Source: Antedon mediterranea
Taxonomy: Eukaryota > Animalia > Echinodermata
Reading direction: 5' to 3'
DNA length: 64,000 nt
Assembly: GCF_964355755.1 (NCBI RefSeq)
Contig: NC_092675.1
Span: 25,950,912-26,014,911, forward strand
The notes under the pieces were generated by a model, which saw only the letters and a program-made list of their open reading frames with translations, had not been told where the DNA came from and did not search any database. Of the stretch, positions 1,942 to 30,000 are shown in pieces. The translations under genes were made by a program, and so were the position numbers. Within the stretch, counting starts at the first letter, position 1. Each line of letters starts with the position of its first letter.

Positions 1942-4900
1942 GTAATTTTCGTAAAACTTCATAACATGGTATTGTAAAATTATTTTAGCATATGTGAATA
2001 TTTGCAATAGCATAATACTGTATGTGTTTGTTGTCATTGAATACAGTAGTGTATAATTTGGATGTATGTATAGAAATTGATTTAAACAAAATATGCAATT
2101 GTAATACCATGTCATAAGGTTTTATTTCTTTTTATAATATAAAATCATCTAATCTTTTTCTATGTATATTCTTTAAATGCAGGAGGAATCGTTATTCATA
2201 TTGTATGGTACTATGGTATTAACCTTTGAGTAGTTATGGAAATTTGTTTTTAAAATTTAAAATTTGATTGCAAAGCTAACAATCATACAACATGGTGATA
2301 AAAGTATACAGAAATTAATAATAATTCAAATCATTCTGAGAAATTTAAAGTTTAAGATCATATACTGAATTGGATATTACAATTGGAATATAAATTTTGC
2401 TCTGTTATTATATAAATTGGAAAATGGGTTAAAGAAATAGGCTAAAAAAGAATTAATTTTAATTTGCAAAAAACAAGCTAACAGCATGATAATATAACAA
2501 TATACAGAAATACTATTTTCGGTTGTTTTAAGTTTTACTGATTTGGATATACCCATTGGAACATTAAATTATAATAATCTGATATTATGAATAACATGGT
2601 TAAAGGCAGCTAGTCCAACCCAGAAAGTGCATGTTTTTTTTTGCTGTTAGGTCAGCATGATAGTTATTCTCTAATTCTAGCACCTCAATTTAGATACACT
2701 ATGTGCATGGACATTGCAGAATAAGGCTATTGACATTGTTAACCATAAGTGTAATTCAAAGTTTTCTATAGGCATTGTTGACTGGAAGGAAAAGTGTGTG
2801 TGTAATCCCTTGTTTTTAATGGGTATGGTCGACCATGCTTCTTATTTCTGTTGTCTATTATTAGCACAATTGAAGTAGACACACGATTGACTTAATTGCT
2901 GGTTGATAGAAAACACGCTAGAGTGTCACTCAACTATGCCGATACAAAATGATAAATTGCACTCACAGTTGTCCATGCCACACAGTCACTTCAAAAGCTG
3001 CATGGCATATTGCATGCTATTTTCTATGAATGGTAGTATTTCAATGCAGTGCAGTGAACAATTTCATTCATGTATAGTCTTATTATTCAACAAACTCTAA
3101 ATGGCCAAAAGCCTAGTATTCACTATTATCAGAACCTTTTAAATTTTACTTTGCATCATCTCATTTTGGTTTGACTATGATTTTAAATCATTTCATTGAA
3201 TTTTCTTGTTTGATGTGCCTTTCAATTTTATTTTTTAAGTTCCATTCTTGTTATAATTCACAATAATTGCATGTCACAATTGCACAATCTTCTCTCTAAA
3301 GCACGTTTGCCCTTGAAACAGAAAATCAACATCAACACATATTTCAGTAAAAACTGTAGCTTAAATTTAAATTTAATTGTTTGAAAGTTTTTAGTATAAA
3401 GTAGAACCTCTATCTAGATTACACCTATTCAGGTAGCACACCTACTTAAGAGACACTTTGTTGGGAACCAAAGTTTTACCCCTTATGCGTTCAACTGTAA
3501 TTCAGAAATATTATTTACATGCAATGTTATATTTAATGAAAGTTCAACTGTATTCCAAAATCATACATTTGCAATAAAAACAATGTAAGGGTTAAACCTC
3601 CCAAAGATAATTCTGCGATGAATAATATCTATTTATAAAATTTTCTAAATAAATGACTGTATTTATAGACTGAAGGAGTAACTGAAATTGTAGAGGTGAC
3701 AGAAATAGAAGAAGTCACAACGCAGTCACTTGTCACTGTAAGTAATAATAAGTAACAAAGAGATTACAATCTACTGCGTTTGTATGGATTACATCAGTTC
3801 ATCTAATATGTAATTGTCAAAAGTATGCAGCATGTTACTTGATAAAATTTGGAAAACAATCAAATAAACTAAAATTTAACACTGATTTTTAATTATTTTC
3901 AAAATAGGATACACCTAAACCTTATACTCTAAGAACTCCTCCACCTCCGCCGCCATCTATTCCTCCTCCTCCACCATTTACTACACCCAGAGTGGATCAG
4001 AATGAAACTGAGGAAGTAGTAACGGAATATGAAGAAGTAACTGAGTTTATACCAACTGTGAGTATTGTTTATTTACACCTGTATACATCTAAATATTCAC
4101 TATTAGCTTTCTGTATTGTTGATTTTTACAACTTTTTATCACTGTTTTTTAGGAAATTCCATGTATTCACAGACTTTCAGTAAAATGATTGATCTTTCCA
4201 ACTTTTTATTACTGTTTTTCAGGAAATTCCAACTTCTGAGACCGTGAGAACTCCTCCACCTCCGCCACCATCTATCCCTCCTCCACCACCATTTACAACA
4301 CCCAGAGTGGATCAGAATGAAACTGAGGAAGTAGTAACTGAATATGAAGATGTAACTGAGTTTATGACAACTGTGAGTATAGTTTATTTACACCTGTATA
4401 CATCTAGCTTGTCACAATTTAGCTTTTTGTAAAATTGTTTATTTATCCAACTTGTTATCAATGCTTTTCAGGAAATTCCAACTTCTGAGACCGTGAGAAC
4501 TCCTCCACCTCCGCCACCATCTATCCCTCCTCCACCACCATTTACAACACCCAGAGTGGATCAGAATGAAACTGAGGAAGTAGTAACGGAATATGAAGAA
4601 GTAACTGAGTTTATGACAACTGTGAGTATAGTTTATTTACACCTGTATACATCTATGTCACAATTTACCTCTTTGTAAAATTTTTTATTTATCAAACTTG
4701 TTATCACTGCTTTTCAGGAAATTCCAACTTCTGAGACTGTGAGAACTCCTCCACCTCCGCCACCATCTATCCCTCCTCCACCACCATTTACTACACCCAG
4801 AGTGGATCAGAATGAGACTGAAGAAGTAGTAACTGAATATGAAGAAGTAACTGAGTTTATGACAACTGTGAGTATAGTTTATTTACACCTGTATACATCT

Positions 4901-7900
4901 AGATTGTCACAATTTAGCTTTTTGTAAAATTGTTTATTTATCCAACTTGTTATCAATGCTTTTCAGGAAATTCCAACTTCTGAAACCGTGAGAACTCCTC
5001 CACCTCCGCCACCATCTATCCCTCCTCCACCACCATTTACAACACCCAGAGTGGATCAGAATGAGACTGAGGTAGTAGTAACGAAATATGAAGAAGTAAC
5101 TGAGTTTATGACAACTGTGAGTATAGTTTATTTACACCTGTATACATCTAGCTTGTCACAATTTAGCTTTTTGTAAAATTGTTTATTTATCCAACTTGTT
5201 ATCAATGCTTTTCAGGAAATTCCAACTTCTGAGACCGTGAGAACTCCTCCACCTCCGCCACCATCTATCCCTCCTCCACCACCATTTACTACACCCAGAG
5301 GGGATCAAAATGAGACTGAGGTTATGCCTACTGTGAGTGTGGGTTATTTAAACAGATTCACAAGCTTTATAAAAACTATTAATTTATCCAACTTGTTATC
5401 ATTGCTTATCAGGAAACCTCAACTTCTGAGACTCCACCTCCACCATAGCAACCAGCCTAGAAATACTGTCAATAACATTTCCATTACAATTTTTCAGACT
5501 ATGCCTAGTTTTACTAGAACACCGCCACCTCCACCACCTTCTATTCCTCCTCCACCAATAACAACATCTGGAATGGAGACCAATGGAACTGAAGAAGTTG
5601 TTACAGAGTTTGAGGATGTTACTAATGTTAATCCAACTGTAAGATTTTTGTTTTTAAAACTAATTTTAGAATTGTCTCAAAATTGTCACGTTAGTTTGTT
5701 TTACAGCATACACTATGTCTCACCACCAACACTTTGTGTGATTAACAATGTCACTGACAAAGATAAATTTAAGTAGCCTCTATCAATAATTTAACAGAAA
5801 CTATGAAAATCTGACATCATCGACAATTGACAATGTTTTTTCTTTTTGGTAGGATCTACCTCAATCTGAGACTCCAAGAACTCCTCCACCTCCACCACCA
5901 TCTATCCCACCTCCATTATTGACAACATCTGGTAATTCAGAAGTTTTGACGGAAATGATAACTCCATCCTTGCGTCCTTCACTAGCACCAATAAGAGCAA
6001 CAACATCATCATTTGATCCGTGTCAGAGCAACCCTTGCTTAAATGAGGCTACTTGTCAGTCCGACGATGGACAGTTTAACTGCATTTGTGCTGAGGGGTA
6101 TACTGGAGCCTTATGTGAAAGAAGTATGTATACACTATAACATAACCATTCATATATGTATTGAAAGAGAAAACAATGGACCGAGTCATCGGCTTTCCTC
6201 AGCTTTACCCAGTTAGAGTCAGTCAGGTAGAAGAATGATTATACAAGAATAATAATCATAGAAGAATTACACTTTTTAGTTTTAACAGCAAAAATCCCGA
6301 AAGTTATTTTTAACAACTTAACAAATTTAATACCAAAAACCCTCCAGTCAAACAAATTGCAAAAGTTGATTTTGTTAATGCTGTGCACTAACAAATGCAT
6401 TTTATAGAATAAAACAAATTTCCAATATTTTTTAGTTATTACAGTTATAACGCCATGTGATAGTGATCCTTGTCTGAATGGTGCAGTATGTACAGATGGA
6501 CTCTCAGTGTTTAGTTGTGTATGTTCTGTCGGTTGGATGGGACCTACTTGTGCAATACGTAAGTTTACTTTTAAGTGTCGGATCCAGAGGTTGATTTTTT
6601 GTTCGAATCCAATTTTTGGTCAAAGTAAATAACTATTATCACATTAAAATATTTATATTCAATAATTTTTTCTAAAGTTTTAGGAGGACAATATATCTTT
6701 TCATAAGCAAAATATTAAACATTATTTTTTCTTCGACAGCGGTTAATGCATGTAATGAATCTATATGTTTAAATGGTGGTGTTTGTGTTGACAGGCAGTA
6801 TTTTGCACTGTGCACATGCCCAGCTGGTTACTCAGGTGTCCAATGTGAAATTAGTGAGTATTAGTTATTACTACCTAATCACCATACAGTTGAGCCTCTA
6901 TATGGGGACAGCTTTGGATGTGTCAGTGTCACCTGAATAGGGTTGGCCATAGTTTTAAAGCTTGTATTGCTTTGTTCCTCTTAAGCATGGTTCCTGTGAT
7001 TCTTGTGATTGCTACTTTTCTTGTCATTGGTTAAAACGCTTGCATTGCGTTTACGTCCTTGCGTTACATTCTAGTGGAAACCAAGCTTTAGTAGGGGTTG
7101 GCCATACAAGTATCCCCTGAATGGGCATTATCCCAAAATAGAGGTTATACGTACTGAATCTCTTTTATTTGATTGTATGTATAAAGTCTTCAGTCCTTTA
7201 TTTGATGTAGTATGAGTTGCAACTTAATTTGGCATAATATCACACTTAAGTTATACTGGTACAAACATACATGTTGTATTTCAAATATTTTTCTTGCAAA
7301 ATGATCTATACATGTAATGACATACAAATTCACAATGTAAATGACTATCTATCCTAATACACAACTTGTTATCTTATTGTAGATATAGTATTGCACTGTA
7401 ATTCATTTTTGTTATCTTATTTCTGTATAGTGGCCATGCCATGTGCTAGTGCTCCCTGTTTTAATGATGCAACATGCGTAGAAGAAGGAGACCAGTTCCG
7501 ATGCGACTGTACTGATGGATTTAAAGGATCTCTATGTGCTCAGAGTAAGAGGATTCATTTTATACAACTGTTTTATATTATTGCAACTTTAATAAATAAG
7601 TAATGTTGTTTATTACTGTGAAGGAGCTTTGTGTCAGGGGGTAAGTTTATTGGTTAGATGTTTTGTCTTCTCTGACATAAATTGTACTTTTGTGGAGATG
7701 TGTAAACAAGTAATTCTTGGACAGGTGAACAAGTAATTCTTTTTCCTCCAGATCAGTAGCCTGGCATTCATGCCTCTAGATCACCAAGCTCAATTTAGGA
7801 TTTTAACCCAGTCACCAACAATTCACACTAAGGAAACACATTTAAAAATTCTCTTATCTAAGTAAATACTACATATGGATAAATCCTAAATATTTATTGT

Positions 7901-10900
7901 GAGAAATTAAATATTTAGCATCTAAGAGGAAACAGTAATACAAAAAAGACATTGGAAAAGTTTTCATACTAGATCTTTATTTGGCCTTAATGGAAGTCTC
8001 CCTGGTCCTTTTGTATATTTTTTGCTTTGTATTTTTTTTCTTTATGGATCAAATAAACTGACTTGTGACTTGTGTAACTTATTACTATCTGATGAAAAAA
8101 AATCCAATAAAATGATGTCATTGTCAAAAAGAACAATACACTTATTGTGAAAATATTATTTTTATCAAAGCCATGAAGTATAAGTGATTTACTGTAGTTG
8201 TACTTTTATCTTTTTGTTGCAGTTGCTGCTTGCTTTAGCAATCCCTGTATGAACGGAGGTGAATGTACAGAAACTGGGAATGAGTACTCTTGTAATTGTC
8301 CTCTGCCATTTAGTGGACAAGACTGCTCAATGGGTGCGTATTGGAGTATTATTGTGTTGTGTTTCAATTGATGTTTAGTTGCTATATATATTGTTTTGCT
8401 TTATCCGTTTGTTATAGTACCGTTTTATCTTGTCCTCACTTTACTGTCTCAAGGCAAGGTTACATTTTAACTGGTGTTTATTTAATCCTCTTTTTATCAA
8501 CATTCCGTAGAAGCTAAATTACACTGTTTTATTTGTGTGTGTTTCAAATCTGTGAAAATACTGTGGTTTAACTGCATGACACCACACTTGGTTGGTGGTG
8601 AGAATTTGCAGGATCGAATCTCACCTTTCTTTTTATTTTTAAAAGTTTTAACTTCGAACTAACTTTTTGACATCTTGTTCCAAATTAAGCACTGTTTTTA
8701 TATATTTTTTTGTTTATACATGTTTCGACTGTGTGTGCATTACTAATACTAATTTTAAAATTTTTTACTAAATAGCAATGTATCTCGTTTTTCCACTGAA
8801 CTGAAAATATAGTAGTAATAACAAAGATACTAATATTGCATGTTTTTCCAGAGAATGATCTTTGTTCATTCGTGCCTTGTCTAAATGGAGGCCAATGCTT
8901 CAATGGTGGCACTTTCACGTTTTGTGTCTGCACTCCCGAGTTTGAGGGAGTTGATTGTGCAACTAGAAGTAAGTAGCATTCATGTAGATAGCGCCCTCAT
9001 ACATAATGCATATGAATGCTCATTTTAGACTTAAATGTACAGACGTTGATATGTACATTAACACTTATAGTGACTTATATATAGTATAGTAGCCTATTAA
9101 CACTGCTGTAGTCAACTACGTAGCAATATAACGTACACTGTACAAGAATTCTTTAGCAGCCACATAACAGTAGTATGCTCATCTCTGAGATATGACATTA
9201 ATTTGTAGAGATGTACAAAATGTCCATGTAAGTTGCACTGTATGACATTCACTTGATAACACTGTCACAAACACCACATTTAGATACAATTCTTTAAGAA
9301 AACAAACATTTATGTTTAAAATGCTATTAAAGGCAAACACAACAGCACAAGTGTCACGTGTATGTGGTTTGTATATACAAATGCATTGTTCATATAGCAC
9401 TCAAACCAAACAGCAATAGCACCCAATGTTGGTACATGTTTGTTTTTACCTTGGTGTATTTGTAATGTTAGAAACTCGTGAAAAGTAGATTTTACTACAG
9501 GTATGTAATAATGTTGAACATTTGACGTTGCGATCATTTTCAAGGATCTGATGAGCTTAATTAAGTTTTTTTCCATTATAGTATACAAAAGTGCCAATGA
9601 AATTGATCAATAGTGGTTAATGATATCAAAGGAGTAATAATAAAATAATAATATAAACAGTTAATCGTTAAAAAACTAATTATGAAATAGCTGAAGTACC
9701 ATCTTTGGAATTTCATTAGAATTACATGGTTTAAATATTCGGACTACTTTATATTAAATCATTTGTGGTGAGTTTTAAATAACATGTCTATTATGTCAAA
9801 TATTTTGTTATTATTCTCCAAATTTTTATTAGAAGGTACAACAGAAGTTCCCCAACAGACAACTACTCCATCATCAGTAACCACCCTATCAGTAGAGCTG
9901 CAAACCAACAGCAGAGGAAATGCCAATACCCTTACTCAGAAGGCTACACCAACTGGTTCTGGATCAACACAGACTTCATCTGATGGTAGGTTTTCTTATT
10001 AGGATTGATGCCTTTATACAGAATGTTCTTTGTATCATACAATCTTTATTTATTATAATATCCAAGTTCACCTGTGAATCTAATCATATTCACTATTATC
10101 ATATATGTAATTTTTTTTCCTTACTTTAGTAATGTTGGCAAAAACACACTGCTTTTCTCTAAAAATGATACTATTAGACTTTATTATTTGAATTATAACT
10201 TTATATTTGTACAGGTTATATTAGATTTATCTAAATGTTTGTTCGGGTTGTCTAAGGTGGATCAGCAAGTCTGAGAGCTTCAGCTTCATTTTATTGCTTT
10301 TTCTAAATCTCTGTCTACACTAAAACTTTATGGAACAAAAAAATGTGATGTGCCCATATATGGACATGATGATGTCATATCAATACCATATCTGGGCATC
10401 ACATCACACTTTTTGTTTAAACTTAGTTTGATAGTGTAGACAGCTTTAGATTCTCATTTTGTTTTTCTGTTTGCTTTTTTTAATAATGAATAATAAATGA
10501 AATACTAAATAGTAGTATTATATGTCTGTATATTATTTGCAATACAGCTCAACCAAGCAATTTTACTGTAACCGGGGAAGCTAGTAGTGATACCGCCACC
10601 ATGACATGGTCATCTGAAGCAAACGCTACATTTTTCCAAGTTGACATTCGTGAAGTGGATTCACGTCGTAAGAGGCAGGCTGATGGTAATTGGATAAGCT
10701 CGCCGATTTTGCCTGCTAATGAAACTGAATATAGCTTTAATAACTTAAAATCAAACACAGTGTATATTACGCGACTTGTTACATATGATATGAAGATGAA
10801 TAAACACTTTAGTAAACAAGTACCATTCAAAACTGCAGGTATGAATAAAATTGAATCTTTAAAAAACATTATATTATCCAATTTTTTAAATCTATAATTA

Positions 10901-13900
10901 GACCATAAAAATAAATTTAATTACTACTTTCAAGCAAATAAAAAAATAAAGATTATCCAGATATTTACTTGTCAGATTATTTTTAAGAGCAGCTACAAAA
11001 AGCAATGACTGCAAACAAATTTATTTCGGTTTCTGAATGAAAAAGTGAAAATTAAGAAAATGAATGTTTCTAAATTATAGAATGGGTGTCCCCTACCATC
11101 TCCACTCACCACAACATCTATAAATCTGAATTCTGTTTCCAGTAAAGTTAAAAAAAATTGTTAATTTTCTCAACAGTTGCATCTGATGGCAATTTCGCTG
11201 CGTCAGATGATACTACGGACTCAAGCACAACGTCCAGCAACGCTATGCTGTTTGTCATGTTGGCTCTGGTACTGGTCATCTTAATAATTTTTGTTGTCAC
11301 TGTAATGTACATGACTGGCCGAACACAAAACAGTTCTTCATCATATTACCCAACGCGGCAGAAATCTGGAAAAATGGTATGTATTTATATGATACTAGTG
11401 GTGTAGGCTGTATAGCCAGCCTATAGATAAGTACAGGTTCCAATCAAGATAATTTTGTTTATTAAGACTTAATTCATTATCTATATATTTTACATCCATT
11501 AGGTACAATTAGCCTTCCATACACATTACAAAATATGAATGTTTAAAATATTAAAATTATATTGTTAATATTAAACTTTGAAACTGTTGTTTAAATACAT
11601 TTACTTGGATTGAAAATAAATAATAATAATTTTTCATTAATAGTCATGCATACATTGCCATAAAAAAAGCATAGGTACAATATAACATTATCACATGTTG
11701 CATATAACAAAATATAATGTTTAAACATTTTTAATCTAGGTTGATATCTCATATGATATTGAAGCAAACGTTGAGACAGTGGAGGTACAACAGGTGACCA
11801 TTGAAGTAGACGTATGGGAAATTCCCAGTGGAAAACTTGCAGTGGAAAATGTAAAAGAGTATGGATCATATACGGAATTATGTTATGGAACGCTGGACAC
11901 CAGAGGCACTGTTAAGCCAGTTTTTGTTAAGAAACTTAGAGGTATGTATGCTAAACCTTAATAGGTAGTTTTGATAGTTTCAAGAAGGTTTAACAAACGT
12001 GATCATAAACACTTTATATTTTGTATTGTGTACTTTTTGTAGATTAAATGTCTGTGTATTACTATTTTATTTACTTTTTTTGGTAAATTAGATATCTCCT
12101 CAGATGTTGACCAAAGGAAGTTGAAAGCTGAACTGGAGATAGTGTGTCAAGTTAGTCACCATCAGAATATTGTCAATTTAATTGGTGCTATTACTCAAGG
12201 TAATTCTTTTTATTATAAAAAAATGTAATTCGATGTAAAAAAGAATCCCTCCACTGTGATAGCTTAAAACTCCATGATTCAGATGTACTCAATGTTGTCT
12301 GTTTATATTTTTTTTAATAAAGTTCTTGTGATTGCTCAAACATTTATTAAGATTGCATGTGTATACTTTTTAATTAAAGATATTAATTGTATATGCAATT
12401 AGAGTTGTTGACACATTAAATCACAGTGAATTAAAATATTCAGACATGAATATGAAGATAAAGAGCACTTTACAAAGTAGTTTAATACTAATTATCTTTA
12501 GAATGTCATAATTCATGCAAATTACAGTAACTGTTGCTTGTGTTTTTTCTTTCTTGTGGCTTTATTAAATTTTACATTTTGCTTATTGTATTTATTTACA
12601 GATCAGATGACGCTTGTGTTTGAGTATTGCGAGCTAGGACGACTGAACGAATGGCTGACATCTTTACAAGAGATACATCAGCTCCTTATACATGACAACC
12701 CAGAGTTTGACATGCTATCACCCTTGATGCCTCATGCCCTGCACATTGCTTCTGATATATCCAAAGGCCTGGCTCATTTGGCCATCATGGGGGTTTGTAG
12801 ATTTTTAATTGTTCATTTATTCATCGTTTACTCTATTTGTTCCAGCTCACTAGCTCTTTGAGTAACATAATCTTGTGTATCACTGGCTTTGCTGCAGAAA
12901 AACTGTAGTACATTTCAATAAAAAGTACACCATTACATTCCTGTTTAAAAATGTTAACCTTTTAGGACACTGTCTGGTGGTATTTCATTCTATATGACAT
13001 TGTTAGAAAATTGTCTAGAAATTCTTTTTCAAAGAAATCTTCTCATAAAAAATCCTCTCAATCAAAATTTAAAACAGCTGGATTTAGATCTATATCGAGG
13101 TGTTCAAAATGTACTGGATTAAGATCTATCTATCAAGGTGTTCAAAATGTTAGGCATTTTTGTTTTATTATTTAGTTTTAACTGTAACAATATTCATCTT
13201 AAAATAGTTTGTATTATATTGTTTTATTTTTCTGTTTGTTTACTGTAATATGGAGTGAATGCAGAATCAGTTTAGGTTTTGCTTATTCTCACTCCTTGTT
13301 GTTTTGCATTGGGGACCAAAAATAATAATATTATTACTTATTATTATTATTAGTGCACAAAACATTGTTTAGGATCACACAACATAATGTTGACGAGTCA
13401 CCTGACAGCCAAGGTGTGTGATTATGGCATGAGTGCTTATTCAGATTTAGACATCTTTGCAGGTGCTAAAGTTGTACATGTAAGTTTTATTTATTTTTCT
13501 TTTAATTTTGAAACCTAGACACAATTGGCTCAATATTAAATTAGTTAAAGCTTGTATTGTTACTGAATAAACTTGTGTAAAGCCTTGTCTACACTATCAA
13601 ACTTTATGTGACAAAACAATTTGATGTGCCCATATATGGACATGATGATGTCACTACCCTATTTAGACATACCGCTACCATATTTGGTCAAATCACGCTT
13701 TTGTTTGTCAAACTAGTTTGATAGTGTAGACATAGCTTAAGGCCTTCAACTTCAACAAACATTTATTTCATTAAATGCCATACAAATAATTCAGATTATA
13801 AAAATGAGGACCAACCTAGAAGTAAATATGTCTCAGTTGGCCCTTTAACACTAGTAATGTTACTTTGCAAACTCTTGAGTTTTGCAAAACAGTTTCAGTT

Positions 13901-16900
13901 CAAAAACCACAGAAAACTAGTTAGCTCTGCATTTTACATATTTTTTCCTGTATGATAACAGACAGCATCAGATAGTTGGACAATACAATACCAGTCAGAG
14001 GTTCGATGTTTAAGAGTGGATGTCTTTATTTTCTGTTTGAAGTTATACATTAATAATTGCATTCTATAAATCTCTCTATCTACTATCAAACCAGTTTGAC
14101 AAAACTGTGGTAGTTATATAATTTGATATGGTAGTAATATGACATCATCATGTCCATATATGGGCACATCACATTTTGTTGTCACCTAAAGTTTGATAGT
14201 GTACACAGAGATTTAGACCTGCATTTCTACAGAAATAAAAAGTTAATTTGTTAGGGATCTTTTGTTTATATTATGTTGTTGTTGTTGTCACATACAATTT
14301 GATAGACGTGTAGAATGAGGTTAAAGAAAGTTTAGCAGAAATCAGTTTTGTTTCTTTATTTTACAGAGTTCTCCACATACAAGATGGATGGCATATGAGA
14401 CGTTATTGTATAATTCTTTCTCTGAGAAGAGTAATATGCAAGTGCTACATTTTGTTCAGAATAATTATTTGTAAAGCTGTATTATAAATATTGATCAAAT
14501 TAGTAGAGAAATATGTGAAGAAACTATACTGTTACATAACTATTGTAATGGCAACATAATCATTCTAATATAGGGATTAAGGATGTAATTTTGATGATAG
14601 TTATTATATGAATATGATTTTGATTTGATGATTATGACAATGTGATAGTGTTTATAAGGATAAATATTAATATATATAAATATTTATATTAACAGGATAA
14701 CAGAATAGGATTGGTAAATATTAATTATTAATCTTTTTTTTTTTCAAATAGCTGGTCATTTGGAATTATCTTGTGGGAAATTTTAACATTTGGTAAGTAT
14801 TGAGAATTATGCATTATTCATCTGTTTTCAACAATAATTATTTTGTGAAAAAAAAGTACAATAAAATAAATATATATTATTAATTACTAATTTCTGTTTT
14901 AATTTTAAATTGTAACCTGTCATTATTGTATGTTTCTTAGGAAATAAACCCTACAAGAATATTCAGTTGGACAAGTTACGAGGTCATCATAAGGAAGGAC
15001 TTCGACTTCCTAAACCTTCCACCATTCCTTCTGACCTGTAAGTACTGTATTTAACATAGCAATAAATAACTCTCAATTAAAGACCAAACTAGGAAATATA
15101 TAACAGTAGTCCAGAAGAACATTATGTGGTTTAAAACCTTATCAATAACAATGGAAACATCCTGCCAAAGCTTCATCTAGATTGGTTGTCAAATGGCAGC
15201 ATTCAGCAAAGAGGATATTATACAGTTTTATATTTGAGTTTTCATGAAGTAAAACGTTTTCTTTGGAACTTTAGTATTTTTCATAGTTTTGTTCGTTTCT
15301 GAATTTAGATCGACATTGTTGTCACAGTGTTGGAAGCTACAACCTAAAGACAGACCAAACTTCGAATACATCAATAATCTACTAGATAAACGGTGTGCTA
15401 ATATGGAATTACAGGTTGGTTTCAAATTTCGAAACTTTTGAATAATAATATATATTCAGATAATATTCAGATAATATTTATTTAGATAATAATGAATGAA
15501 TATATACAAAATAGAAAAAAGATATTAAAGTGAACATAGATAAAGCAGTAATTGGTAGTCATTATTATCATGGATCCCTTCTAGAAGTTAAAAACTTGTC
15601 TCGTAGGGACCCATAACAAAACACATTACTAAAAAAATAAAAATAACCTAGAATATATAATTATATAATTTAGGATAAAAAATTACAGTATAATAACATA
15701 ACTAACATCTTCTTTATAAAAATTATTTAAATTATATTTCAATAGTTTCATGATAATTATAAATGAAATAACTACCGATATTGGTAAATGAAAAAAAAAT
15801 ATGTATACATAAATTATAATTCCAGTATATATATAGTATATACTATATATACATTATATATAGTATAGATTAAAGATTGCAATAATAAACAACAACTAAT
15901 ATTTTGTGTAAGACATAAATAGTATATGAGTATAAATAATGATAATAATAAATTGACAAGTTATCAGTTACACTTACTGCTATGTTGTTCAGTAGCTGTA
16001 TTATGAATGAGTTTTTTTTATAGTAGAAGAGATACCTTCAGATCCCTTTCCTATGGGTTTCCGGCATCATTTGTTGAAAATGTCCCCTAATATGAGTGTT
16101 CCAAAGGAGCAGTCATATTGTAGTATACTCATAATTACCAGCATGACTCGATCTTTAAGAAAATAATTAGTTGTAAGTTGTTAAAGGTTTTATTTATTAG
16201 TTCTATATTTTAATCAATTTTCTCTTCATTTGTTTTTTTAGAATGTTAGTAAAAGAAAGGAGGTGTTTGCTTCCCTCACTAGGATTGGTTCAGCAAGTGA
16301 TCACATGACTGCTTCTCACATCAAACAACTCGAACACCTAACAAATACCAGTATTCAAAATGTAATTGTTAGTTGTTAGTTATAGATTGTAATGTTGTGA
16401 TGGTGGTAAAAAACATGATGATGATAATGATGATGGGGTTGATTGTCAACGGTTGTCACTGTAATTAAGCGCCTAAAGATGATTATACAAATATGATTGA
16501 TATTACAATGAAAATGATAGAGGTGATAGAAAACATTTTTGTCCAGTGTTCATAATGGTGATTTTGATGTTGTTTGAAAATGTCAGTGTTGATTGAATTT
16601 CAGCTGTGAGAAGGAAGAGGTGATTTCAGTTCACAATGTTGTTTGTCAATAATAATTATACTGGTTACATTGTCAATGTTACAATGATTTCTTGATGATT
16701 AGATTAAAGATTCAATACCTGTTCTTTCATGTAATTGTGATTATATTTTTCAGTCTTCTCCTGCTAGTCGCCTGATGGCAGTGCAGTATGCTGGTACAGT
16801 CTTCCCAGGGAATCATGTTCCATCTAAGTTTGTACTTCTTCTTGCCTGTGGTGATGAGTAAGTATACTTTTCTCTTTTACACTTTCTTTTCTCTTCTATT

Positions 16901-19900
16901 CATTTCCCTCTATTTGACATCTTTTTCCTCTTCTTTTCTTTTCTTTTTCCTTGTTTCTTTCAATTTTTTCTACTTTTTGCTCTTCCATTGCACTCTGTCT
17001 TTCCTTTTCATTTTTTTTAGCTTTCTTTTTTTCTCATCCTTTAGTTTGTCTTAGTTCTATTTTCTTCCTTTTCTTTTCCTTTAATCTTTCTTTTCTTTAC
17101 TATCTACTAAAATTTAATTGTTTTTTTTAATTTTTAAACTTTTTTTTATTAGGAATGATACAATACGTAGTGAAGCCGTAAACATTCTCCGTGCTCACAC
17201 AAAGGTCAGTGAAGCTGACATAACATCCCATCAGCCAGCTGGAACTTACATGCCATCATTTCCTGAAATGGCATTGCATCTGAGGTCAAAGGTAACAGTA
17301 AGTGGGAAATGTGGTGACTTTCAGAACAGAAATTGGAAAACACATTTCAACTGTTTTAATTTACAATTAACTTTAAAACAATTTAAACTGTTAAACATTC
17401 AATAATTGGTTGGCATGTGTTTGTTTATCTGTCCTGTCGGTTTTGTTTTTAGTGTTAATGACTGCATTATGAGGATGATTTGTTTAATTGTACGTAATTT
17501 TAATTCTTTTTGAATATTTTTCTAGGCTGCAGAAGCCATGAATGCTCCAAAGCTGAAGTCACAAGGCCCTCTTGGCACCTTTACAATCCCATTCCATCCT
17601 GGGTCTTTTGAGAAGGTAACGCATTATTGCTTGCGCTTTTGTAATCATCATTCATTATTATATTCTAAATTATGAAATTAGGTTAATTAATAGTTAAAAA
17701 TAAATAACACTTTATATTTTAAAATCTCAACTTTATTTTCAGAGGGTAACCCTCTGGCATCCAGAATGACAAACGTACTTAATTAAATTAAACTATTTAT
17801 GTGCTTTCTATAAATTTAATTTATCTTTTCTAGATATCGGTTTACTTACGAATGTGCTTAGCTTATTCTGCCGGTGTTACGCCAAATGTAAGCACCATCG
17901 AACAAAGGCAGAAACAAGGCCCTGCTCTTTATACATACATTCAAGGCCTTCTACAGAACTATAGTGGTAGTCGACACAATCCTCTCATGACATACCTAGG
18001 CCTACTGAGACAGTATGTATCAGCTATAGGAGGTGGGGCGGCTATGCTGCGTCTACTAGAACTAGCATCTATTGCACCGAGTAAAGTAGGGCCTGAGTTT
18101 GCTACCAAAACTGAGCATTTAAAGGTAGGTTTTTGATGTAGTACAAGAGTAAGTTGAGTGGCCGTGCGGTTAAGACAGTGGAACCGTAATTACATAGCCA
18201 TAACATCGGCAGGGGTTCGAGGCTCACTCACTCCATGGTTCTGGTGGTAGAACGAGTCTTCTCGGATAAGGACTATCAACCGTAGGTCCAGTGTACACAA
18301 CTAGCTCGTGTGCACTTTAAAAGAACCTAGTACATCTTTCGAGACGAGTAGGGGGTTACCCCGGTGTATTAGTACATCACAGCCACTGATCACCAACTGG
18401 GCCCTCTGGGAGACCAGTCTTTGACTGAAGAGGTCGCCCAGTATAAATATAAAACAAAACAAAACAAAAACTAGAGCAGCACCAGTATTTTCTAATTTTG
18501 TAAAGAGTAATTAACATTCATAATGCTGTTTTGTTTATATTTCTAGGCCCTAGTGGAGTCTACTGATGATAAAATGAGGGAATATGCAGCACAGATGTAT
18601 GGTATTGTTGCTTGCTATATGGAGAGGCCTAGCCTCAAGCAAGACCTTAAACATTTGATACACTCCATTGATCATGACGTAAGGGAATTGGTTATAACTA
18701 TTGCTGAAAGTTTACTTTACACCTCACTCAATAGGTTATTGGTTGGTTTGTGCATATTGATTTGTTAGTGAATTTTTGTTTTGTTTTATTTTGTTTCAGA
18801 ACTATGCTACTCAACATGGAGCCATATTGGCTCTTGGCTACATGATAAGTAAGCTGATCGAGAAAGAGAATAAGGATGGCAAAAGCTACATCCAACGTGA
18901 CAGAGACAGTCTTGATTCCTCAGAAGATGATGTTTATAACGATGCAATGAAAGCCATTGGTAAAACATGTTTTATTTTAAGAGATTGATTCTGTCAAAGT
19001 GGTGTTCAAATAGAGGAAAACCTGTAAAAATAAATGTTAAAAGTGTATAAAATTATTACAAACATTCTTTGGTTTTGTTATAGGGGCTATGCTTGAATCC
19101 ACCAATAAAGATTTAGTTTCTGCAGCCTGTGATGCCATTGCTGCTGTTGCCTCTCAAGGGGCACTGCCACTCAGTGGTGGTGGTAATGGTAGCTTCAAGG
19201 GCAAGAATAAGGGCAGTACATCAGTTACTAAGCATTATGTTGTGAAACAACTGACACAGTTGATCAGTAATGAGGGCTTTGCAGAACAGGTAAGAGCATT
19301 TAGGATTACTTCAACATTTTGTTTAAATGCCCCTCCTTTTGGATACCACTATTTAGGGTATATATGTTTTAACACTACCCCTATTATATTATTATTATCC
19401 CGAAGATATCCCCAAAATTGGGCATTCATTTTAACTGTACTTAAAACTGACCATAAGTTGTACTAGTATTAAAAAACTATCTTGGTTTTGATGATACCGC
19501 TAATTGTTTACTTTAGTTTCAAATACATTAAAATTATTATTATGTCTTAATATGTTTAGGTAAAAATAAAAGCTGCTAGAACACTTGGCAATCTTATTGT
19601 CGGTGAAGCAGATTTCCCATACAAAGAAATTGTAATGGAAGTATTAACTAATACAATTGAGGTGAGTAAATGTATTTGATCAAAGAGTCACAATAGTACT
19701 GTGATACTGTTATAATATTTTTACATTGTACATAGATGAGACAATTTAATTTGGTCATTATAGAACTATAATTGTAATGGATATCTCTTCCATCTTTCAT
19801 CAGAATTCAGCTGCCAAAAAATCAAACCACATTGAGCTTCACTTTGGCTTAGGAGATGCTTTGGGTACTGCCATGCAGGGAAGAAGTGCCCCAGAGGGGC

Positions 19901-21320
19901 GTGACCAGTGGCTTGAGGTGACAGCTTATGATGGTTTAGGAGACATAGTTAATGGAAACCTCAGTGAATGTATTGAAACATTGTTGATGGGTTTCAAGAA
20001 CAGTGACAATGAGAAGTACAAAGAGGTGAGTACAGCTCTGTCTACACTATCAAACTAGTTTGAAAAAAAGTGTGATATGCTTAAATATGATAGTGATATG
20101 ACATCATTATGTCCATGGGCACATCACATTTTTTTGTTTGATAGTGTGGACAGAGCTTTAGATGACCACGAGTAAAATGTTCATTTTATGGTTTTTGGTT
20201 AATAGCAGCTTTTCAAAATAGTGAACGAACTACTGTATTGTTTTTGATACTATCTTAAATATCAATTTGTTTTTTAGGCTGTATGTATCAGGCTTTTGAT
20301 TCTTGTAGAAATCTTTTATCAACGTGAGGAAATTCAGGTAAACAAAATTTAATTTTGATTTATAATTTTTAATACAAATATGCTATTACTATATTATTGG
20401 CTGTTTATATATAAATAAATCGAGTTTATTATCAATATTTACTAATGTTTAAAGCCATTAATTATATTTTGAGTGTCATTGAACCTTTTATTATAATTAT
20501 AATATTATTTCATATTTAAACTTTGTTTTAATTTAATTAACAGAGCCAGCTACCAGATCTTAAGAATATTATCACTCAAAAAGTTCGAGAGTGGGATGGT
20601 ATGTTCAACCGATTTATAAAAATATCTTCTTTGTACAGAAATTAAGTTCTTGATACAAAAGCAGATTTAGCCTTAAATTGTTGCTATTTGAACTCCTATA
20701 TGCAGTAGCGTACACAGGGGAAATGGTCCCTAGTTTAACACTTCTTGGGGCTGGAGAATTGCATTAGGGTTGTTTATGCTCTGGGGCACCTTAAGCTATG
20801 GTGCCCCTGGGTTTAGCCTTTTAGTGCTCATAGTTGATACGCCACTGCCCAATGTGAATTAAGTTATATTTTTTCATATTTTTTTTTCTCTTTTGGTTTT
20901 TGTTTGTTATTCATAACATATGTATGTTGAATCGACTATTATGTATTTTATCCGTTTATTTTATATTGACACTGTTGATTCGTCTATTTGTTTTTTAAAT
21001 ATTTTTATATAGTTTATTTTATATCATTGTTGTTACTTTGGGAGTACGGAACCTGAACTCTTGTTATAGTGATTAGGTTCACTTTTAGGTTCCTGCCTAC
21101 TCCCTTAGTTTCTGTGTTTTGTTTGTTTGTAACTGGTTTTTGGCAATAAATAATAATAATAATAATAATGTATAATTTTTGAAATGAACAATAATATAAT
21201 ATAGCTTATTTATTTATTTATATTCCAGGTTCTCAGCAGATACAGTATCTTCCTGAAGAGACCCAGTCTAGGTTACTTATAGCATTAAAGGCATTAAAGG
21301 CTGCTGAGGAGATTAACTAA
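1..21320 (+). CDS. Putative chimeric receptor tyrosine pseudokinase: acidic repeat / Pro-Thr stalk / 6xEGF / FN3 / TM / dead TK domain / ECM29-derived HEAT region. Multi-exon; 5' end lies outside the window.
   Basis: The hand-assembled exon chain has compatible splice phases and no in-frame stop from the acidic exon (ends 1941, ATG|gtaatt) to TAA at 21318-21320. Components are listed as separate features below. The kinase-to-HEAT junction (15414/16242, phase 0) is inferred. Confidence 0.7.
3908..5638 (+). repeat. Tandem exon+intron duplications encoding Pro/Thr/Glu mucin-like stalk units (EIPTSETVRTPPPPPPSIPPPPPFTTPRVDQNETEEVVTEYEEVTEFMTT)
   Basis: Phase-0 exons at 3908-4057, 4223-4372, 4472-4621, 4718-4867, 4967-5116, 5216-5332 and 5498-5638, each bounded by ag/gt. 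The period is ~246-249 bp and the introns are near-identical. Confidence 0.9.
5853..8968 (+). CDS. Six EGF-like domain exons
   Basis: Exons 5853-6123 (CQSNPCLNEATC), 6445-6558 (CDSDPCLNGAVC), 6740-6853 (CNESICLNGGVC), 7431-7544 (CASAPCFNDATC), 8223-8333 (CFSNPCMNGGEC) and 8852-8968 (CSFVPCLNGGQC). All show the 6-Cys pattern with phase-1 boundaries. Confidence 0.92.
6983..7089. mobile_element. Degenerate MITE family (ends CTAGTGGAAACCAAGCTT)
   Basis: Related decayed copies at ~22957-23098, ~34820-34890 and ~54436-54538 share ATTGGT...TTGCGTT...CTAGTGG..ACCAAGCT-like sequence. Confidence 0.5.
10306..10447. mobile_element. Short (~130-160 bp) MITE family, representative copy; ~10 copies in the window
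   Basis: TIR AGCTCTGTCTACACTATCAAACT and internal GTGCCCATATATGGACATGATGATGTCA. Other copies lie at ~13580-13737, 14070-14213, 20034-20158, 22564-22678, 27406-27540, 28650-28783, 29265-29350, 36045-36184 and 52990-53118. Confidence 0.85.
10548..10838 (+). CDS. Fibronectin type III domain exon
   Basis: The exon translates as QPSNFTVT...ATMTW...YSFNNLKSNTVY...FKT, which carries FN3 hallmarks. It is a phase 1-1 exon, preceded by a Ser/Thr-rich exon at 9833-9985. Confidence 0.8.
11177..11376 (+). CDS. Transmembrane exon
   Basis: Hydrophobic stretch MLFVMLALVLVILIIFVVTVMYM followed by the juxtamembrane segment TGRTQNSSSSYYPTRQK. Confidence 0.88.
11740..15414 (+). CDS. Tyrosine-kinase-like (pseudokinase) domain, 8 exons
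   Basis: Exons 11740-11941 (WEIP...VFVKKLR), 12092-12199 (AELE...HQNIVNLIGA), 12602-12792 (FEYCELGRL...ISKGLAHL), 13354-13479 (KHCLGSHNI...KVCDYG), 14367-14437 (RWMAYE), 14752-14792 (WSFGIILWEI), 14941-15037 (PY...GLRLPKP) and 15309-15414 (CWKLQPKDRPNF). Confidence 0.92.
16242..21320 (+). CDS. Diverged partial duplicate of ECM29/ECPAS (central HEAT repeats), 13 exons, ~590 aa, open frame
   Basis: Exons 16242-16361, 16754-16857, 17153-17291, 17526-17615, 17834-18124, 18547-18678, 18800-18959, 19084-19289, 19560-19661, 19804-20025, 20278-20337, 20544-20598 and 21229-21320. They are colinear with the ECM29 exons at ~39012-32909 (-). Examples: VFPGNHVPSKFVLLL vs [25 protein letters not shown] vs [18 protein letters not shown] vs MPSFQEMA. 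Confidence 0.9.
18150..18470 (+). mobile_element. tRNA-derived SINE with a Deu/Nin-like central domain
   Basis: A box (TGGCCGTGCGG), B box (GGTTCGAGGC), core GGATAAGGACTATCAACCGTAGGTCC...TTAAAAGAACC...GAGTAGGGGGTTACCCCGGTGT and an (AAAAC)n tail. The domain assignment is from recalled consensus. Confidence 0.75.
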
Positions 21321-24054: not shown

Positions 24055-27000
24055 TTACTCTGTAACATCCCCTTGATCCTTCAGTTCTTGTTCAGCCTCT
24101 GCTTCTGTTGCCATTTCCTCCACCTCCTCTTCAGGTATGGCAGGCAAGCTAGAGATGGCCTTCCTGACATCTGCAGCATGGTCTCTCAATGGTCTGTCTG
24201 GATCAGCTCCCATCTTATTCAGAGCATCCAACAATTGACCACGTAAATTATTAGTTAAAAGAACAGTCACATCAGCACCTGGAAGTGACAGAATGAACAG
24301 ATAATTAATGTATACAAATAATTAATGTTTATGAGAAATGTGAAACCAGTTTCATCTGGTTTCAATGTAGTAATAAAAAGATATAGTTAATGAATTACAA
24401 ACTAGTGTAAAACCTATGTATATGAGTTGAAGGAGAAGAATATTTCTATGAGAAGAATAAATCAATTCTATTTAAGAAGGCGGAGACGAGTTGAATAGGA
24501 CAGTCAGAATTAAAAACGAAAATATATCAATGGTATGAAAAAGTCAGCATTAAAGTGTTAAAATACTCACTTGATAATCTAGCAACCATATCATCTATAA
24601 TTTTTACTGCTGATCTTCTAATAGCTACATACTTAATAATAGCTGAAATAAACAAATTGAGAATATATCACATATTTTGGTGTATAAGCTATATTAAAAA
24701 TAAAGTCTGAACTTCTTTATATACAGGTATAATAATAGGTATAGGTATATAATGCTATATTAAAAATGATTAAGCCTGGCATTGTACATAACCTAAAATA
24801 TACAGGAAATAATGCATTATTTTTGGTACCATCCAAACTTACCAAGTCTGCTACATAAAACTGGAACTATTTTGATCAAAATTGAACTAAGAACGACTTC
24901 ATCTTCAGAACTGAGATTACCTTGTAAATATACCAAACTGAATTGAAAAAAAAAAAATTTTAATTAAAAAATCTTTGTTTAGTCACCCCTACTTACAATC
25001 AAACGTATATTTCCAATTGATATATAACTTACCGTTGTAGGAATTGTGACATTGCCTTTAATATATGCACTTGTATCTTGAAGGTACTGATTTCTACACC
25101 AGCACACATTAAACCACAAAACCGTTCATGTTGAATTTCTAATATAGTAAATATAAAACAAAATGTTAGGTAATAAAGATATTAGAAAAATAATTAAACA
25201 ATAATTTAAATGAATTTCCTTCATAAATTTCTCAAATAAAATGTATGTAGATAATTAAGATTACGAATAATGGAATGTACCAATATTTAGTCAACCAGAT
25301 ACTATTGGGTATAGGACTAAACAGTTTTCAGGAAATCTCCATTTCAGAATGAAACTATATACAAGATTTTAGAAAATTAAAACTAGTTTTGTGAATGTTT
25401 GAGTTGAAATTTGAGTTGATAGAAAACTTTGAGTGTGGTTCATATTGAGATCAATAAGCTTACCTTTAATTTTGGTATATTACAGTATAACCACTAAAGT
25501 GTTCCTTGAATTGGGGTTCTTTGGTGTTTCATGTGAAATTGAATGAATAGGGGTTTCCTAAAGAAGAGGTATTATTTTTAACAATTGTATAGCATCATAC
25601 AGTACCTTGAGTGTGCCTTGTTTTGGGCCATGCTTTACCTAGACTTTCATAGGCAAACTCCTCAAGTATCAACTGCTCTTCTTGTGCTTCTCTGTCTTCT
25701 TCTTCCTCTTCTTCTTCATCATCATCTTCCTTTTTTGTCTGTCATTATTTTATTGTTGAAAACACAAATGTTAAACTTTTTGTATAAAAGGTGACTATAA
25801 TAGCATAACAAATTTTCATATATTTATTACAAGTACAAAAAATAAATAATAAATTGTGTAGCAAATAAAACACAATTGTCTTTACTGATGAGTTTATGGC
25901 CACTGGAAAAACAACATCGACTAGAGCCTTTATATATATATAAAACTCCACTCCCAAAGACTTTGTTTATGTAGAGCATCTTGTGTTTATGTTTTTCTTG
26001 TGAATGGGAGTGCCATATAAAGGATAGTGAATGAATTTACTTATGGTTATCCTTGGCAATTTGCCTAAATATAAATAAAAGGATTGGTAAAATCATTCTG
26101 GCAGTAGAGACTAGTAAATATCAACTTCAATATGGTTGTTTATTAAACAAAACAGACATACAATAATAATCATCAATAGTTTTCATTCACAAATGAAACA
26201 TTGCTGGTTTATACAGGACATACATACATACATACAGTATATAATTGAATAAGTAAATAGACACTATCCTACCTTATCTATAACAGGGTAGAGTATCTCT
26301 GCCAAGTCTGCAAACCTATCGATATCATGCGTTAGTAATATAGTGGACATACACTGTAAGGCCTCCACCTTGTAGCTAACTTTCTCTTTTTTACATTCCT
26401 TCAACAATGCTGCTAAGATATCTTCCATGGTTGGCTGATCTGATGATGTATCACCCTCAACTACCAATGAACCTCTAAACAAATATAATACACATTATTG
26501 TGACAACTGAAATCTATCTGAAAAACCACAGTAGTAAAATATACACAGTATATAAAAAGATAAACTAACGTTCCAGTTTAGTACTGTACTCAAATTAAAT
26601 TCAATTATATTGTAGAAGACACTAATGATGTTCACTTACTTTGATTTTGTACATAAGGATGTTAAAGCCTTCAATAACTCTTCCTGTGGATGACATTGTT
26701 AAACATAGCAATCGTAAATTATCAATTGATAAATACCAACTTTAATACAATGTATATCTAATAGTAATATTGCATTTGAAATGACATTTTGAACGTCAAT
26801 TAACTATTGAAAATCTAAACAGATTTTAATAATAGTTCGTTCTTATATAACACAAAGCAAGCTCTCAACGCGTTGCACATTTTAACCTATTTTAATCTAT
26901 ACATTTACAAACATATTACATATTATTCTTATATTATATTATTATTTTGTAAGCTTTGAAATAATAAAGATATCTGCAAATCTAAATTATTTCTGCCTAC

Positions 27001-30000
27001 CTTCCCATCCCATGTTCTACCAGCTAAGCCCTTCACAACCAACTTCAGTAGCTGGCCAAGATGTGGTTGAGTTAGGCTTGACCCTAGCTTACTAGCTATT
27101 GTACTTATTGCTCTTGCGCCCTGTGCTTTCCTGGGCCAGGATTGTGAAGCGAGTGCATCTTGGGTAATTGTGACAAGTTCTGGTAGATAAAGGCGAATGC
27201 CTCCCTCGGTGCCTGGTGTTGAATCAAGCCAAATGTCTTCCCATATAGACTCCACATGATCAGAATTTGCTGTTTGTTTGGAAAAATAAAATGTCATAAA
27301 AAACAACAGTATAATCATGTAGAATAAAATAATAGTACAGTATTGGGTTTTATTTATATTATTTTATTTATGAATACTTTTAAAGAATAACAGGTAACAC
27401 TCTAAAGCTCCGTCTACACTAACTTTATGTGACAACAAATACAATGTGCCCATATGGACATGATGATGTCATATCACCATATTTGGGCCTATTGCTACTA
27501 TATTTTGGCACATCACACTTTGATAGTGTAGACAGAGCTTAATAGTGTAGACAGAGGTTTAGAGTTTGAAATGGAAATACATTCATAACAAAAAATTAAA
27601 AGATTAAAGAAAACATATCAAACCTTTTTGTGGTTTTTCATGCATAGCTAAAAAGGTCAAAGGTAAAGCTACTGATGCATGATTCTTCAAAACATCTGAA
27701 TTGCTCCGTGAAATTGCATGAAGTGTCAAACCACAAGCATCTCTCAGTGAATCATCTATGTAACAAATTTGAAAAAAATGTTATCATAATTATTATTAAC
27801 AGTACATATTTATAGATACATATACACAGCAACAAATATTTGAAAAAAACCATACCATCTTTTTCCAGATACCAGGATTTAATACGGTTAAGAAGTTTTT
27901 CAACACTACTATCCTTTGCTACCTGAAAAAATAAATATTAAAGTTATTTCCGCAGAATGCATTATAAGATCCACTCATTTCTAAAACAATATTTTATGCT
28001 TCAAAGACTTTTTCTTTATATATATAAAACAAAGCAATACCTTAACTAGATGTCCAATTGCGGATGAATTACTCTTCCTGACAGCTGCGCTACGGTCACT
28101 GAAACCAGCTAGGAGACTGCTTAGAATCTTGCCTATATCAACAAACAAAAATGCATATTATGAACAGTTTTGAACCTTTGGTTTAAACTAATGATTATGG
28201 ATGACCATAACTCAAAGCTAAGAAATGGTCAATAATCTGTGTAGGTGCCGTATGTAATGGCAATGACAGTTTTCTGTTTCTTGTTCTCTTCAGCAGCTCC
28301 TGCACTTCCTGATGTTGTACTCCTTTTGTAAAGCCACTCTGTCAGGCTGGACATCCACAGTACACTTTTACTACCTCTTCCAATTGATGTTTCCAGTCAA
28401 AGGCCAAGTTCTTGATGCTGTCTTTTCTGATAATGTACTGTACAAGGGCAATGATGATATTAATGAAATAAGTCTTACTTGCATATTCTTCAAGATCTCT
28501 CGGACAATGGCTGCTAAGCATCACCATAAAATTAGCTGCCCCTACCTAGAAAGAATTCAAAATTAAGTAGAGGGAGGAAACAGACTTTCTTTACTGTACA
28601 GTAAGTCATAGTCAACACGGAGGAGCATCAGTATTAAGCATTTTCATAAAGCTTGACTGTCTACACTATCAAACTTTTATGACAACCAAATGTAATGTGC
28701 CCATATATGGACAACTTGACGTCACATCACTACCATATTTGGGCACATCACACTTCTTGTCAAACTAGTTTGATAGCGTAGCTTAAGAATGTGAAATTTG
28801 ATCATATTCATTTCAGTTTTAAACACTATTTATCACGTTGAAACCACTTACTTTTGTATTCACTCCTACTCCATACTTGATGACGTCAATAAGTCTAGGA
28901 ACAAGCTCTTTTAACACTTCACTATCGACATATTTTGTGCACTATAATAAACAGAATACAGAGTTTTTAGTAACTACATAGTTGCAAAAACAAGCAAAAT
29001 AATGTGAGGTACACATCATACTCTATATTTTTGCTGCATAAATATACGGTATACAAACATATTTAACTCACCAATGTTATGGTTTCCATCATTGATGAAG
29101 ATTTTGCAGCTGCTACTCGGATATCATCAAGCTTTTACAAAGAAAAAGTGTAAAATAGATGACATATTATTGTACATTAAAACATATAAACACCTAATAT
29201 ATAAATACCTAATGTACAGTTTTGTCACCTTGACTCTTTTTCCACTTATCATTATTAACACTTAAGCTCTCTCTACAGGAAACTTTATGTGACAACAGTG
29301 TGATATGGACATGATGATGTCATATCACTACCATACTTGCGCACATCACACAAATCAGTTCATACTTCAATATCAATATTTCTAGTTATTTAATTAGTAT
29401 TTCCTTTCTCTACTAACATAATATACATAATAGTCATCATCATATACTATAAATTACCTTTTCAACAACTCCTTGGTTTGCACTGACTCGTGATGATAAA
29501 TAATTCAAACGGTTATCTTCAAGTCCACTTAAAGATTCAAGCAATGCAATGACCAGTAGTGGGATGTGTGGTGTTAGCATTTTACCAGCATTCTTAGCAA
29601 TCTTTACAATCGTATCCAGGCTAATACATGAAAACATGAATTTATATAATTATAAAAAAAACAAGGCCAACAGCCATTAAGTCGCGTGCTACAATGCATA
29701 GTGATACCGGACCGACAGACAAACAGACCGACAGACCGACAGACAGACGGACCGACCGACATAGTGAACTATACTGACCGAAATTACTGAACATGTTTAA
29801 AAATGTTGAAATGTTTAAAAACATTTATATTTTTTTAATTTACACGTGCGTAGCCTGTCACTTTTGACGTGCTCGTATAACGTAATTTCGAGTTGAAAAG
29901 TAAGTCAAGAAAACAGAAATCGGGCAAGAAGAGTGCGCAATAACATTTAACGCGCAGTGCGCGCGCAAAAATCTGCGCACTCATGGCAATTTTGTAAACG

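Follow-up and report, generated by a model that had tools for sequence, protein, structure and literature searches.

The present analysis concerns a 64,000-nucleotide (nt) stretch of the genome of the echinoderm Antedon mediterranea (contig NC_092675.1, positions 25,950,912 to 26,014,911 of the forward strand; hereafter the window), AT-rich animal DNA without N positions, in which a plus-strand gene joins the fold of a receptor tyrosine kinase in frame to a segment of ECM29 (ECPAS). The product is probably a single-pass receptor pseudokinase that signals through a repurposed, ECM29-derived solenoid scaffold and not through phosphorylation, and, judging from sequence comparison, the fusion is likely to be ancient, shared by echinoderms and hemichordates, rather than a local accident. 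The receptor type is apparently undescribed: searches by title and abstract opening, which left out papers behind subscription, the 2006 sea-urchin kinome among them, returned no description of the fused protein, and PMC8662651 contains no occurrence of HEAT, echinoderm or hemichordate.

Exons were placed by coordinates, with the AG and GT borders and the phase checked for each. From the FN3 exon through the stop codon, 23 exons encode 1068 residues with one stop, and the addition of 16 upstream exons gives a full model of 39 exons, 7218 nt and 2405 residues, with its single stop at 21318-21320 and its 5' end open at base 1. The encoded chain comprises mucin-like repeats, six EGF domains, an FN3 domain, one membrane helix, a tyrosine-kinase fold and a 590-residue ECM29-like tail; it has the extracellular modules of a receptor tyrosine kinase and the single transmembrane helix ahead of the kinase, the latter recurring in two proteins from relatives described below (P0189 and P0142). 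The features of the gene are as follows, X1 referring to contigs of sequence reads.

1..1941, plus strand: Ser/Glu/Asp-rich repetitive ectodomain exon (open frame 1-1974; its donor, after 1941, is of phase 0, and the 39-exon model reads through it in frame), starting before the window, with the start codon and signal peptide outside it
3669..5638, plus strand: eight phase-0 exons of the 39-exon model, mostly tandem 150-nt Pro/Thr/Glu-rich mucin-like units
5853-6123, 6445-6558, 6740-6853, 7431-7544, 8223-8333 and 8852-8968, plus strand: six EGF exons (PF00008 above cut-off in all six; phases consistent)
9833..9985, plus strand: Ser/Thr-rich stalk exon, joined by splicing with the FN3 exon in record 4 of the X1 contigs
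10548..10838, plus strand: FN3 exon (PF00041, E 3e-9), spliced in the X1 contig
11177..11376, plus strand: transmembrane exon with a single helix (best 21-residue hydropathy 3.34 versus a tail maximum of 1.33), spliced in the X1 contig
11740..15414, plus strand: pseudokinase of eight exons (11740-11941, 12092-12199, 12602-12792, 13354-13479, 14367-14437, 14752-14792, 14941-15037, 15309-15414), tyrosine-kinase fold with HRD changed to KHC and DFG to DYG
15415..16241, plus strand: fusion intron, phase 0, 827 base pairs (bp), containing a read-through stop at 15439-15441 and three AATAAA hexamers
16242..21320, plus strand: ECM29-derived helical-repeat tail, 13 exons, 590 residues (exons 1-7: 16242-16361, 16754-16857, 17153-17291, 17526-17615, 17834-18124, 18547-18678, 18800-18959; exons 8-13: 19084-19289, 19560-19661, 19804-20025, 20278-20337, 20544-20598, 21229-21320)

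The junction between kinase and tail is defined by the fusion intron, whose donor after 15414 (ACAG/gttggt, the slash marking the border) and acceptor before 16242 (18 of 20 letters pyrimidines) are both of phase 0. This acceptor is the strongest of ten candidates in the intron; the nine alternatives, all weaker and with short frames, were rejected. Reading through the donor leads to a stop codon after 24 nt, and the 13 tail exons carry GT-AG borders and matching phases up to their single stop. The sequence-only reading of this DNA had proposed this phase-0 donor at the end of kinase exon 15309-15414, a strong acceptor 827 bp downstream opening a phase-0 exon without a start codon, twelve further exons in phase up to 21320 (about 590 residues), and the read-through stop; all of these points and their coordinates hold.

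Five sequencing runs cover the stretch, none of them on record as RNA, and four were aligned over 5800-15800. In X1 contig record 4 (852 letters), exons 9833-9984, 10547-10835, 11174-11375 and 11739-11945 stand back to back, which points to a spliced molecule linking the ectodomain, the membrane helix and the kinase; X1 also contains low-depth intronic pieces. The match of the sole X1 contig at 15363 ends 52 letters on, exactly at donor 15414, with like distances at other exons, and the donor is therefore used. Of the spliced join 15414/16242 for which reads had been proposed as a check, the donor half is thus supported, while its partner exon was not seen. Among 40 of the 116 differences, confined to ectodomain and kinase, 13 of 15 coding differences are synonymous and two conservative, versus 22% synonymous expected.

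The same fusion occurs in gene models of other species. Of 200 candidates compared with a single exon of the tail, one protein was returned, LOC129272132 of the sea urchin Lytechinus pictus (P0001, 1097 residues, with PF07714 and PF23702), which forms one alignment of 893 columns with the window model at 38% identity and a gapless junction (NMELQ/NVSK versus SIKLQ/DKAT). A cluster-representative search added two partial models of the hemichordate Saccoglossus kowalevskii: XP_006820085 (P0033), whose sequence starts in the final helices of the kinase and passes into the ECM29 segment at the equivalent residue (NLELQ/VERA), and XP_002730645 (P0142/P0200), with seven FN3 domains, a membrane helix and the first two thirds of the matching dead kinase. 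Since the end of P0142 and the start of P0033 fall at introns of the window gene, they probably represent a single gene divided over two contigs. When long proteins were searched by profile, six of 7545 candidates matched, namely five ECM29s and XP_071510669 of the sea urchin Diadema antillarum (P0189, 3645 residues), a single chain with a long Ser/Thr-rich (mucin-like) region, EGF, FN3, a membrane helix, a PF07714 kinase, the junction CIKLQ/DNNT and an ECM29 segment with PF23702. The chimeric receptor first proposed from the window alone is thereby matched, with an identical gapless junction, in models of two sea urchins and one hemichordate, and the suggested search for proteins with EGF, FN3, tyrosine-kinase and ECM29 domains succeeded in P0189. 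A search with the P0001 tail among proteins of 603-1920 residues recovered P0001 and 28 ECM29s from 7991 candidates and missed P0033, so that protein searches under-count; that they found no fused form outside echinoderms and hemichordates is accordingly weak evidence of absence.

The ectodomains of these proteins diverge, with six EGF and one FN3 domain in the window gene, one of each in Diadema and seven FN3 in Saccoglossus. Within the window gene, 3908-5332 (plus strand) holds six near-identical tandem exon-intron units with a period of about 247 bp, encoding polyproline/Thr/Glu repeats, which are a recent expansion of the ectodomain stalk. An RRKR motif at about 10665-10680 (plus strand), in the FN3 loop, is absent from the Diadema FN3 and is presumably a furin-type site by the usual consensus. 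In P0189, a stretch at about 2320-2425 with a GSII motif precedes the EGF domain; it has no Pfam match at E 0.01, and we take it to be SEA-like. Residues 1-95 of P0001 form a basic, cytosolic-type N-terminus in place of the ectodomain and membrane helix, 59% identical to the N-terminus of P0076, an unnamed protein.

The kinase of this gene had been described as dead, and the comparison agrees: the HRD motif reads KHC, EHS, HHS and NHH across the four species, the catalytic aspartate, present in active kinases, being absent from all four. The β3 lysine, the αC glutamate and the DFG aspartate are kept in all four and the catalytic-loop asparagine in three, whereas the subdomain IX aspartate is asparagine in every one, a shared derived change; motif names follow general usage. 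PF07714 matches P0001 at E 9e-52 and P0189 at 1e-49, and the window kinase was assigned by alignment and tree. To our knowledge, no receptor tyrosine pseudokinase carries a helical-repeat solenoid behind its kinase. PMC13519141 defines a pseudokinase by sequence as lacking at least one of the VAIK lysine, HRD aspartate and DFG aspartate, and by that definition the absence of the HRD aspartate makes this kinase one; it also describes HER3 as having lost the HRD aspartate while keeping the lysine and DFG aspartate, as here. HER3/ErbB3, PTK7/CCK4, ROR1/2, EphA10 and EphB6 are likewise single-pass receptors with a tyrosine-kinase fold that lacks a catalytic residue, and the four fused-type kinases may resemble ATP-binding pseudokinases such as HER3.

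Quick trees were used for both kinase and tail. In a 48-row kinase tree, from which the named pseudokinase families above are absent, the four fused-type kinases form one clade with a Shimodaira-Hasegawa-like approximate likelihood ratio test (SH-aLRT) value of 99, and their sister is a group of seven active, SAM-bearing receptor kinases of amphioxus (SH-aLRT 91, not starred; P0045, P0046, P0048, P0050, P0054, P0057, P0081). These have the nearest kinase domains (37-39% identity) and similarly variable ectodomains of EGF, FN3 and Ig type, but they differ in their intact HRD (seven of seven), in a juxtamembrane SAM domain and in ending straight after the kinase; they possibly correspond to the 'EXTK' expansion.

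The origin of the tail is indicated by a second gene in the window, which runs convergently (tail-to-tail) with the fusion gene.

24055..45068, minus strand: intact parent-type ECM29 gene (1769-residue open model)
32909..39012, minus strand: ten ECM29 exons matching the duplicated segment, by the intron map

The ECM29 model, in which the last two exons are not phased and a small exon needed there is not placed, shares 42-48% identity with four animal ECM29s across about 1765 residues; its ATG micro-exon probably lies near 45660. The tail aligns to residues ~438-1046 of this model at 27% identity over 641 columns (E 5e-57), and all ten ECM29 introns in the aligned span recur in the tail at the same alignment column and phase, which indicates duplication of a ten-exon genomic block and not retroposition. 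Two extra introns are found in the tail, after 17615 and 20337. The fusion intron coincides within one codon with the ECM29 phase-0 intron before exon 39012-38890, and the first tail exon (120 nt) aligns with that minus-strand exon (123 nt), as had been claimed from the window alone; the second and third equal their counterparts in length (104 and 139 nt). PF23702 (ARM_ECM29) scores E 6.8e-21 on exon 17834-18124, the largest of the tail, and together with the ten common introns this upholds the ECM29 origin first suggested for the tail. Only profile positions ~402-496 of the 497 in PF13001 are matched, short of the full ECM29 domain, and the first ~440 and last ~800 residues of ECM29 are missing, so that about a third is kept, ending near residue 1040. 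Compared with ECM29/ECPAS (PF13001, PF23702), to whose residues ~440-1040 it is homologous with introns common to both, the tail differs in a new capping end, 31 tail-specific invariant residues and attachment to a membrane receptor. A PDB sequence search gave no match, ECM29 having no solved relative there.

Conservation was compared across the four tails and 19 ECM29s. Among 82 columns at least 90% conserved in ECM29, 34 are invariant in all tails and 31 have mostly disappeared from them; the four tails share 127 invariant columns, 31 of which are rare in ECM29, with nine tail-specific invariant residues clustered at tail residues 132-151 around KS(Q/K)GPLG(T/V)F(T/H)IPF. Identity between tails across classes and phyla (35-39%) is similar to that between ECM29 orthologues (38-47%), whereas tail and ECM29 share 24-34%, which suggests lasting constraint on a tail that has diverged from its parent. 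The C-termini of the three relatives read EVTSF, EVTAL and KTTHF, which by the familiar consensus we take to be class I PDZ-type ends. An AlphaFold model of P0001 from a three-row alignment has a mean predicted local distance difference test (pLDDT) score of 44, with only ~660-1013 above 50, as helical repeats, and played no part in assessing the junction.

A quick tree of 25 rows places the four tails in one clade (SH-aLRT 100), with a branching order like that of the species: Saccoglossus, window, two urchins. The approximately unbiased (AU) test was run on a 16-row tree, nine rows having been dropped for speed; it rejected a grouping of the window tail with the window ECM29 (p-AU 1.3e-6), and with it a recent duplication from this genome's own ECM29, and did not reject joining the tails with ambulacrarian ECM29s (p-AU 0.49). 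As both tails and kinases form single clades, the fusion would be older than the split of echinoderms and hemichordates. P0033 and the Saccoglossus ECM29 model P0038 have the same longest contig size reported, 145,285 bases, a hint that the adjacency of the fusion gene and ECM29 is also old. In the ancestor of the two phyla, a copy of ten middle ECM29 exons would have arisen beside the original gene and, through a phase-0 intron, been added by splicing to the end of an adjacent receptor tyrosine kinase belonging to the lineage expanded in amphioxus; the catalysis of this kinase would have been lost on the same stem.

In the receptor proposed here, the dead kinase would still bind ATP and provide a rigid platform that can be switched, in the manner of HER3 or ULK4. 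When an extracellular ligand clusters the receptor, or when it pairs with an active receptor kinase, the solenoid would become exposed or change position and bind partners in the cytoplasm. These would most likely be adaptors of membrane sorting or of the cortical cytoskeleton, contacted through surfaces that are partly new, such as the tail-specific KSxGPLGxFxIPF motif and, in three of four species, the PDZ-type C-terminus. A feature search returned pseudokinase-HEAT clusters (0.80-0.85), taken as leads only; Vps15 and STK36/TIO are presumably further kinase-HEAT scaffolds. In ULK4 (PMC13727655) and SCYL1-3/Cex1 (according to abstracts), a dead kinase is likewise followed directly by HEAT repeats and has a scaffold role. 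These proteins are soluble, outside the tyrosine-kinase class, and have HEAT repeats not derived from ECM29, whereas the window protein has a receptor-tyrosine-class kinase, ECM29-derived repeats and a membrane helix. It represents a convergent pseudokinase-solenoid architecture: functioning like a receptor pseudokinase and built like ULK4 or SCYL, it belongs neither with ECM29 nor in those families.

Several observations weigh against this proposal. The 15414-16242 join was not seen in X1 contigs, in an alignment over 5800-15800 that ends inside the fusion intron; the fusion was found in only four species, by word-limited searches, and in the relatives rests on NCBI gene models named 'uncharacterized' or 'ECM29-like'. 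The L. pictus models are without ectodomain and membrane helix (three of three cluster members of like length, one sequence having been read), and the Saccoglossus gene is an inferred union of two partial models on different contigs. The 34 ECM29-conserved positions invariant in all tails would fit a kept ECM29 function, and the window model ends in EEIN without a PDZ-type end, no downstream exon with such an end being found in 21321-24050.

A serious though unlikely contender is that the tail of the same fused receptor keeps the proteasome-binding surface of ECM29 and, in response to an extracellular cue, anchors 26S/19S proteasomes and the motor or ankyrin partners of ECM29 at the plasma membrane or on endosomes. 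The sequence-only reading had likewise offered recruitment of proteasomes or trafficking machinery to the membrane as a possible role. The captured segment corresponds to the distal half of the ECM29 N-terminal arm, ending just before the hinge at 1048-1148, and in silico docking puts this arm on Rpn1 and Rpn10 (10.1101/2022.06.06.495046); Rpt1, ankyrin G, KIF5B and Arp1 are recovered in pull-downs with the N-terminal region of Ecm29 (PMC7041676), and the 34 positions shared by ECM29s and tails, in a count that does not separate core from surface residues, agree with such a role. Yet ECM29 contacts Rpt1, Rpt4, Rpt5, Rpn1, Rpn10 and alpha7 (PMC8214149, PMC4908598), its grip on the proteasome being multivalent (the same sources and PMC12663562), and the tail has lost 31 of the 82 conserved positions. 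Since the tail retains only about one third of ECM29 and carries 31 invariant residues that are new, the balance tips slightly towards a repurposed scaffold over proteasome recruitment, and retained proteasome binding would be possible without being the default. A small central Ecm29 fragment reportedly stayed on the 26S proteasome in work by Gorbea in 2010. In its most specific form, an ambulacrarian-specific receptor that would couple an extracellular ligand or adhesion cue directly to 26S docking at the membrane via the captured arm, the idea is doubtful.

It is improbable that the conserved unit is a soluble or peripheral, ULK4/SCYL-like pseudokinase-HEAT protein made from an internal promoter, with the receptor, or a kinase-only form ended by intronic polyadenylation, as a minor product. 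The cytosolic-looking N-terminus of P0001, with its counterpart in P0076, joins the common sequence at the window's phase-0 intron after the membrane exon, and three AATAAA hexamers lie in the fusion intron, but at 23% G+C that intron is expected to contain AATAAA often by chance, X1 splices the stalk, FN3, membrane and first kinase exons together, and a membrane helix precedes the same kinase in the Diadema and Saccoglossus models. An erroneous merger, by gene predictors, of a receptor pseudokinase gene with a separate, truncated ECM29 paralogue next to it would account for the unseen junction read and the stop 24 nt past the donor; it is very hard to reconcile with a first tail exon without a start codon, an identical linker-less junction in three further species of two phyla, and the only X1 contig at 15363 ceasing to match at the donor.

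The families of receptor tyrosine kinases are regarded as well catalogued, and what varies among them is the extracellular part; in this case the inner side acquired a housekeeping scaffold, the kinase died on the same stem as the graft, and the product was kept in two phyla, whose divergence dates back more than 500 million years. The fused receptor could serve as a molecular marker of Ambulacraria, shows that the pseudokinase-plus-solenoid design arose independently, and forms a new family amenable to knock-down in standard embryo models (Lytechinus, Saccoglossus), and its tail offers a natural ECM29 fragment for asking what the middle third binds. If proteasome docking were true, signalling would proceed by local protein degradation instead of phosphorylation, and ECM29 residues ~440-1040 would be a self-sufficient proteasome-binding module.

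Other elements of the window were also noted. GC splice donors, demanded by frame and alignment, occur in the kinase (14437/14438, plus strand) and in ECM29 (40759/40758, minus strand). An ECM29 intron holds a reverse-transcriptase fragment at 43028-43534 (plus strand; PF00078, E 2e-14), a remnant of the long interspersed nuclear element type, and a mucolipin-like (TRPML) channel gene at ~49400-57700 (plus strand) lies divergent from ECM29, with a weak PF21381 match (E 2e-4) on 50282-50530. Within a tail intron, 18150-18420 (plus strand) is a G+C-richer insertion in which ARAGORN found no tRNA and which, we presume from its appearance, resembles a tRNA-derived short interspersed nuclear element. 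Many introns contain a short interspersed repeat of very high copy number with inverted ends, which reaches extreme depth in all four runs.

10330-10450, 13580-13740, 14090-14220, 20040-20160 and others: high-copy short interspersed repeat

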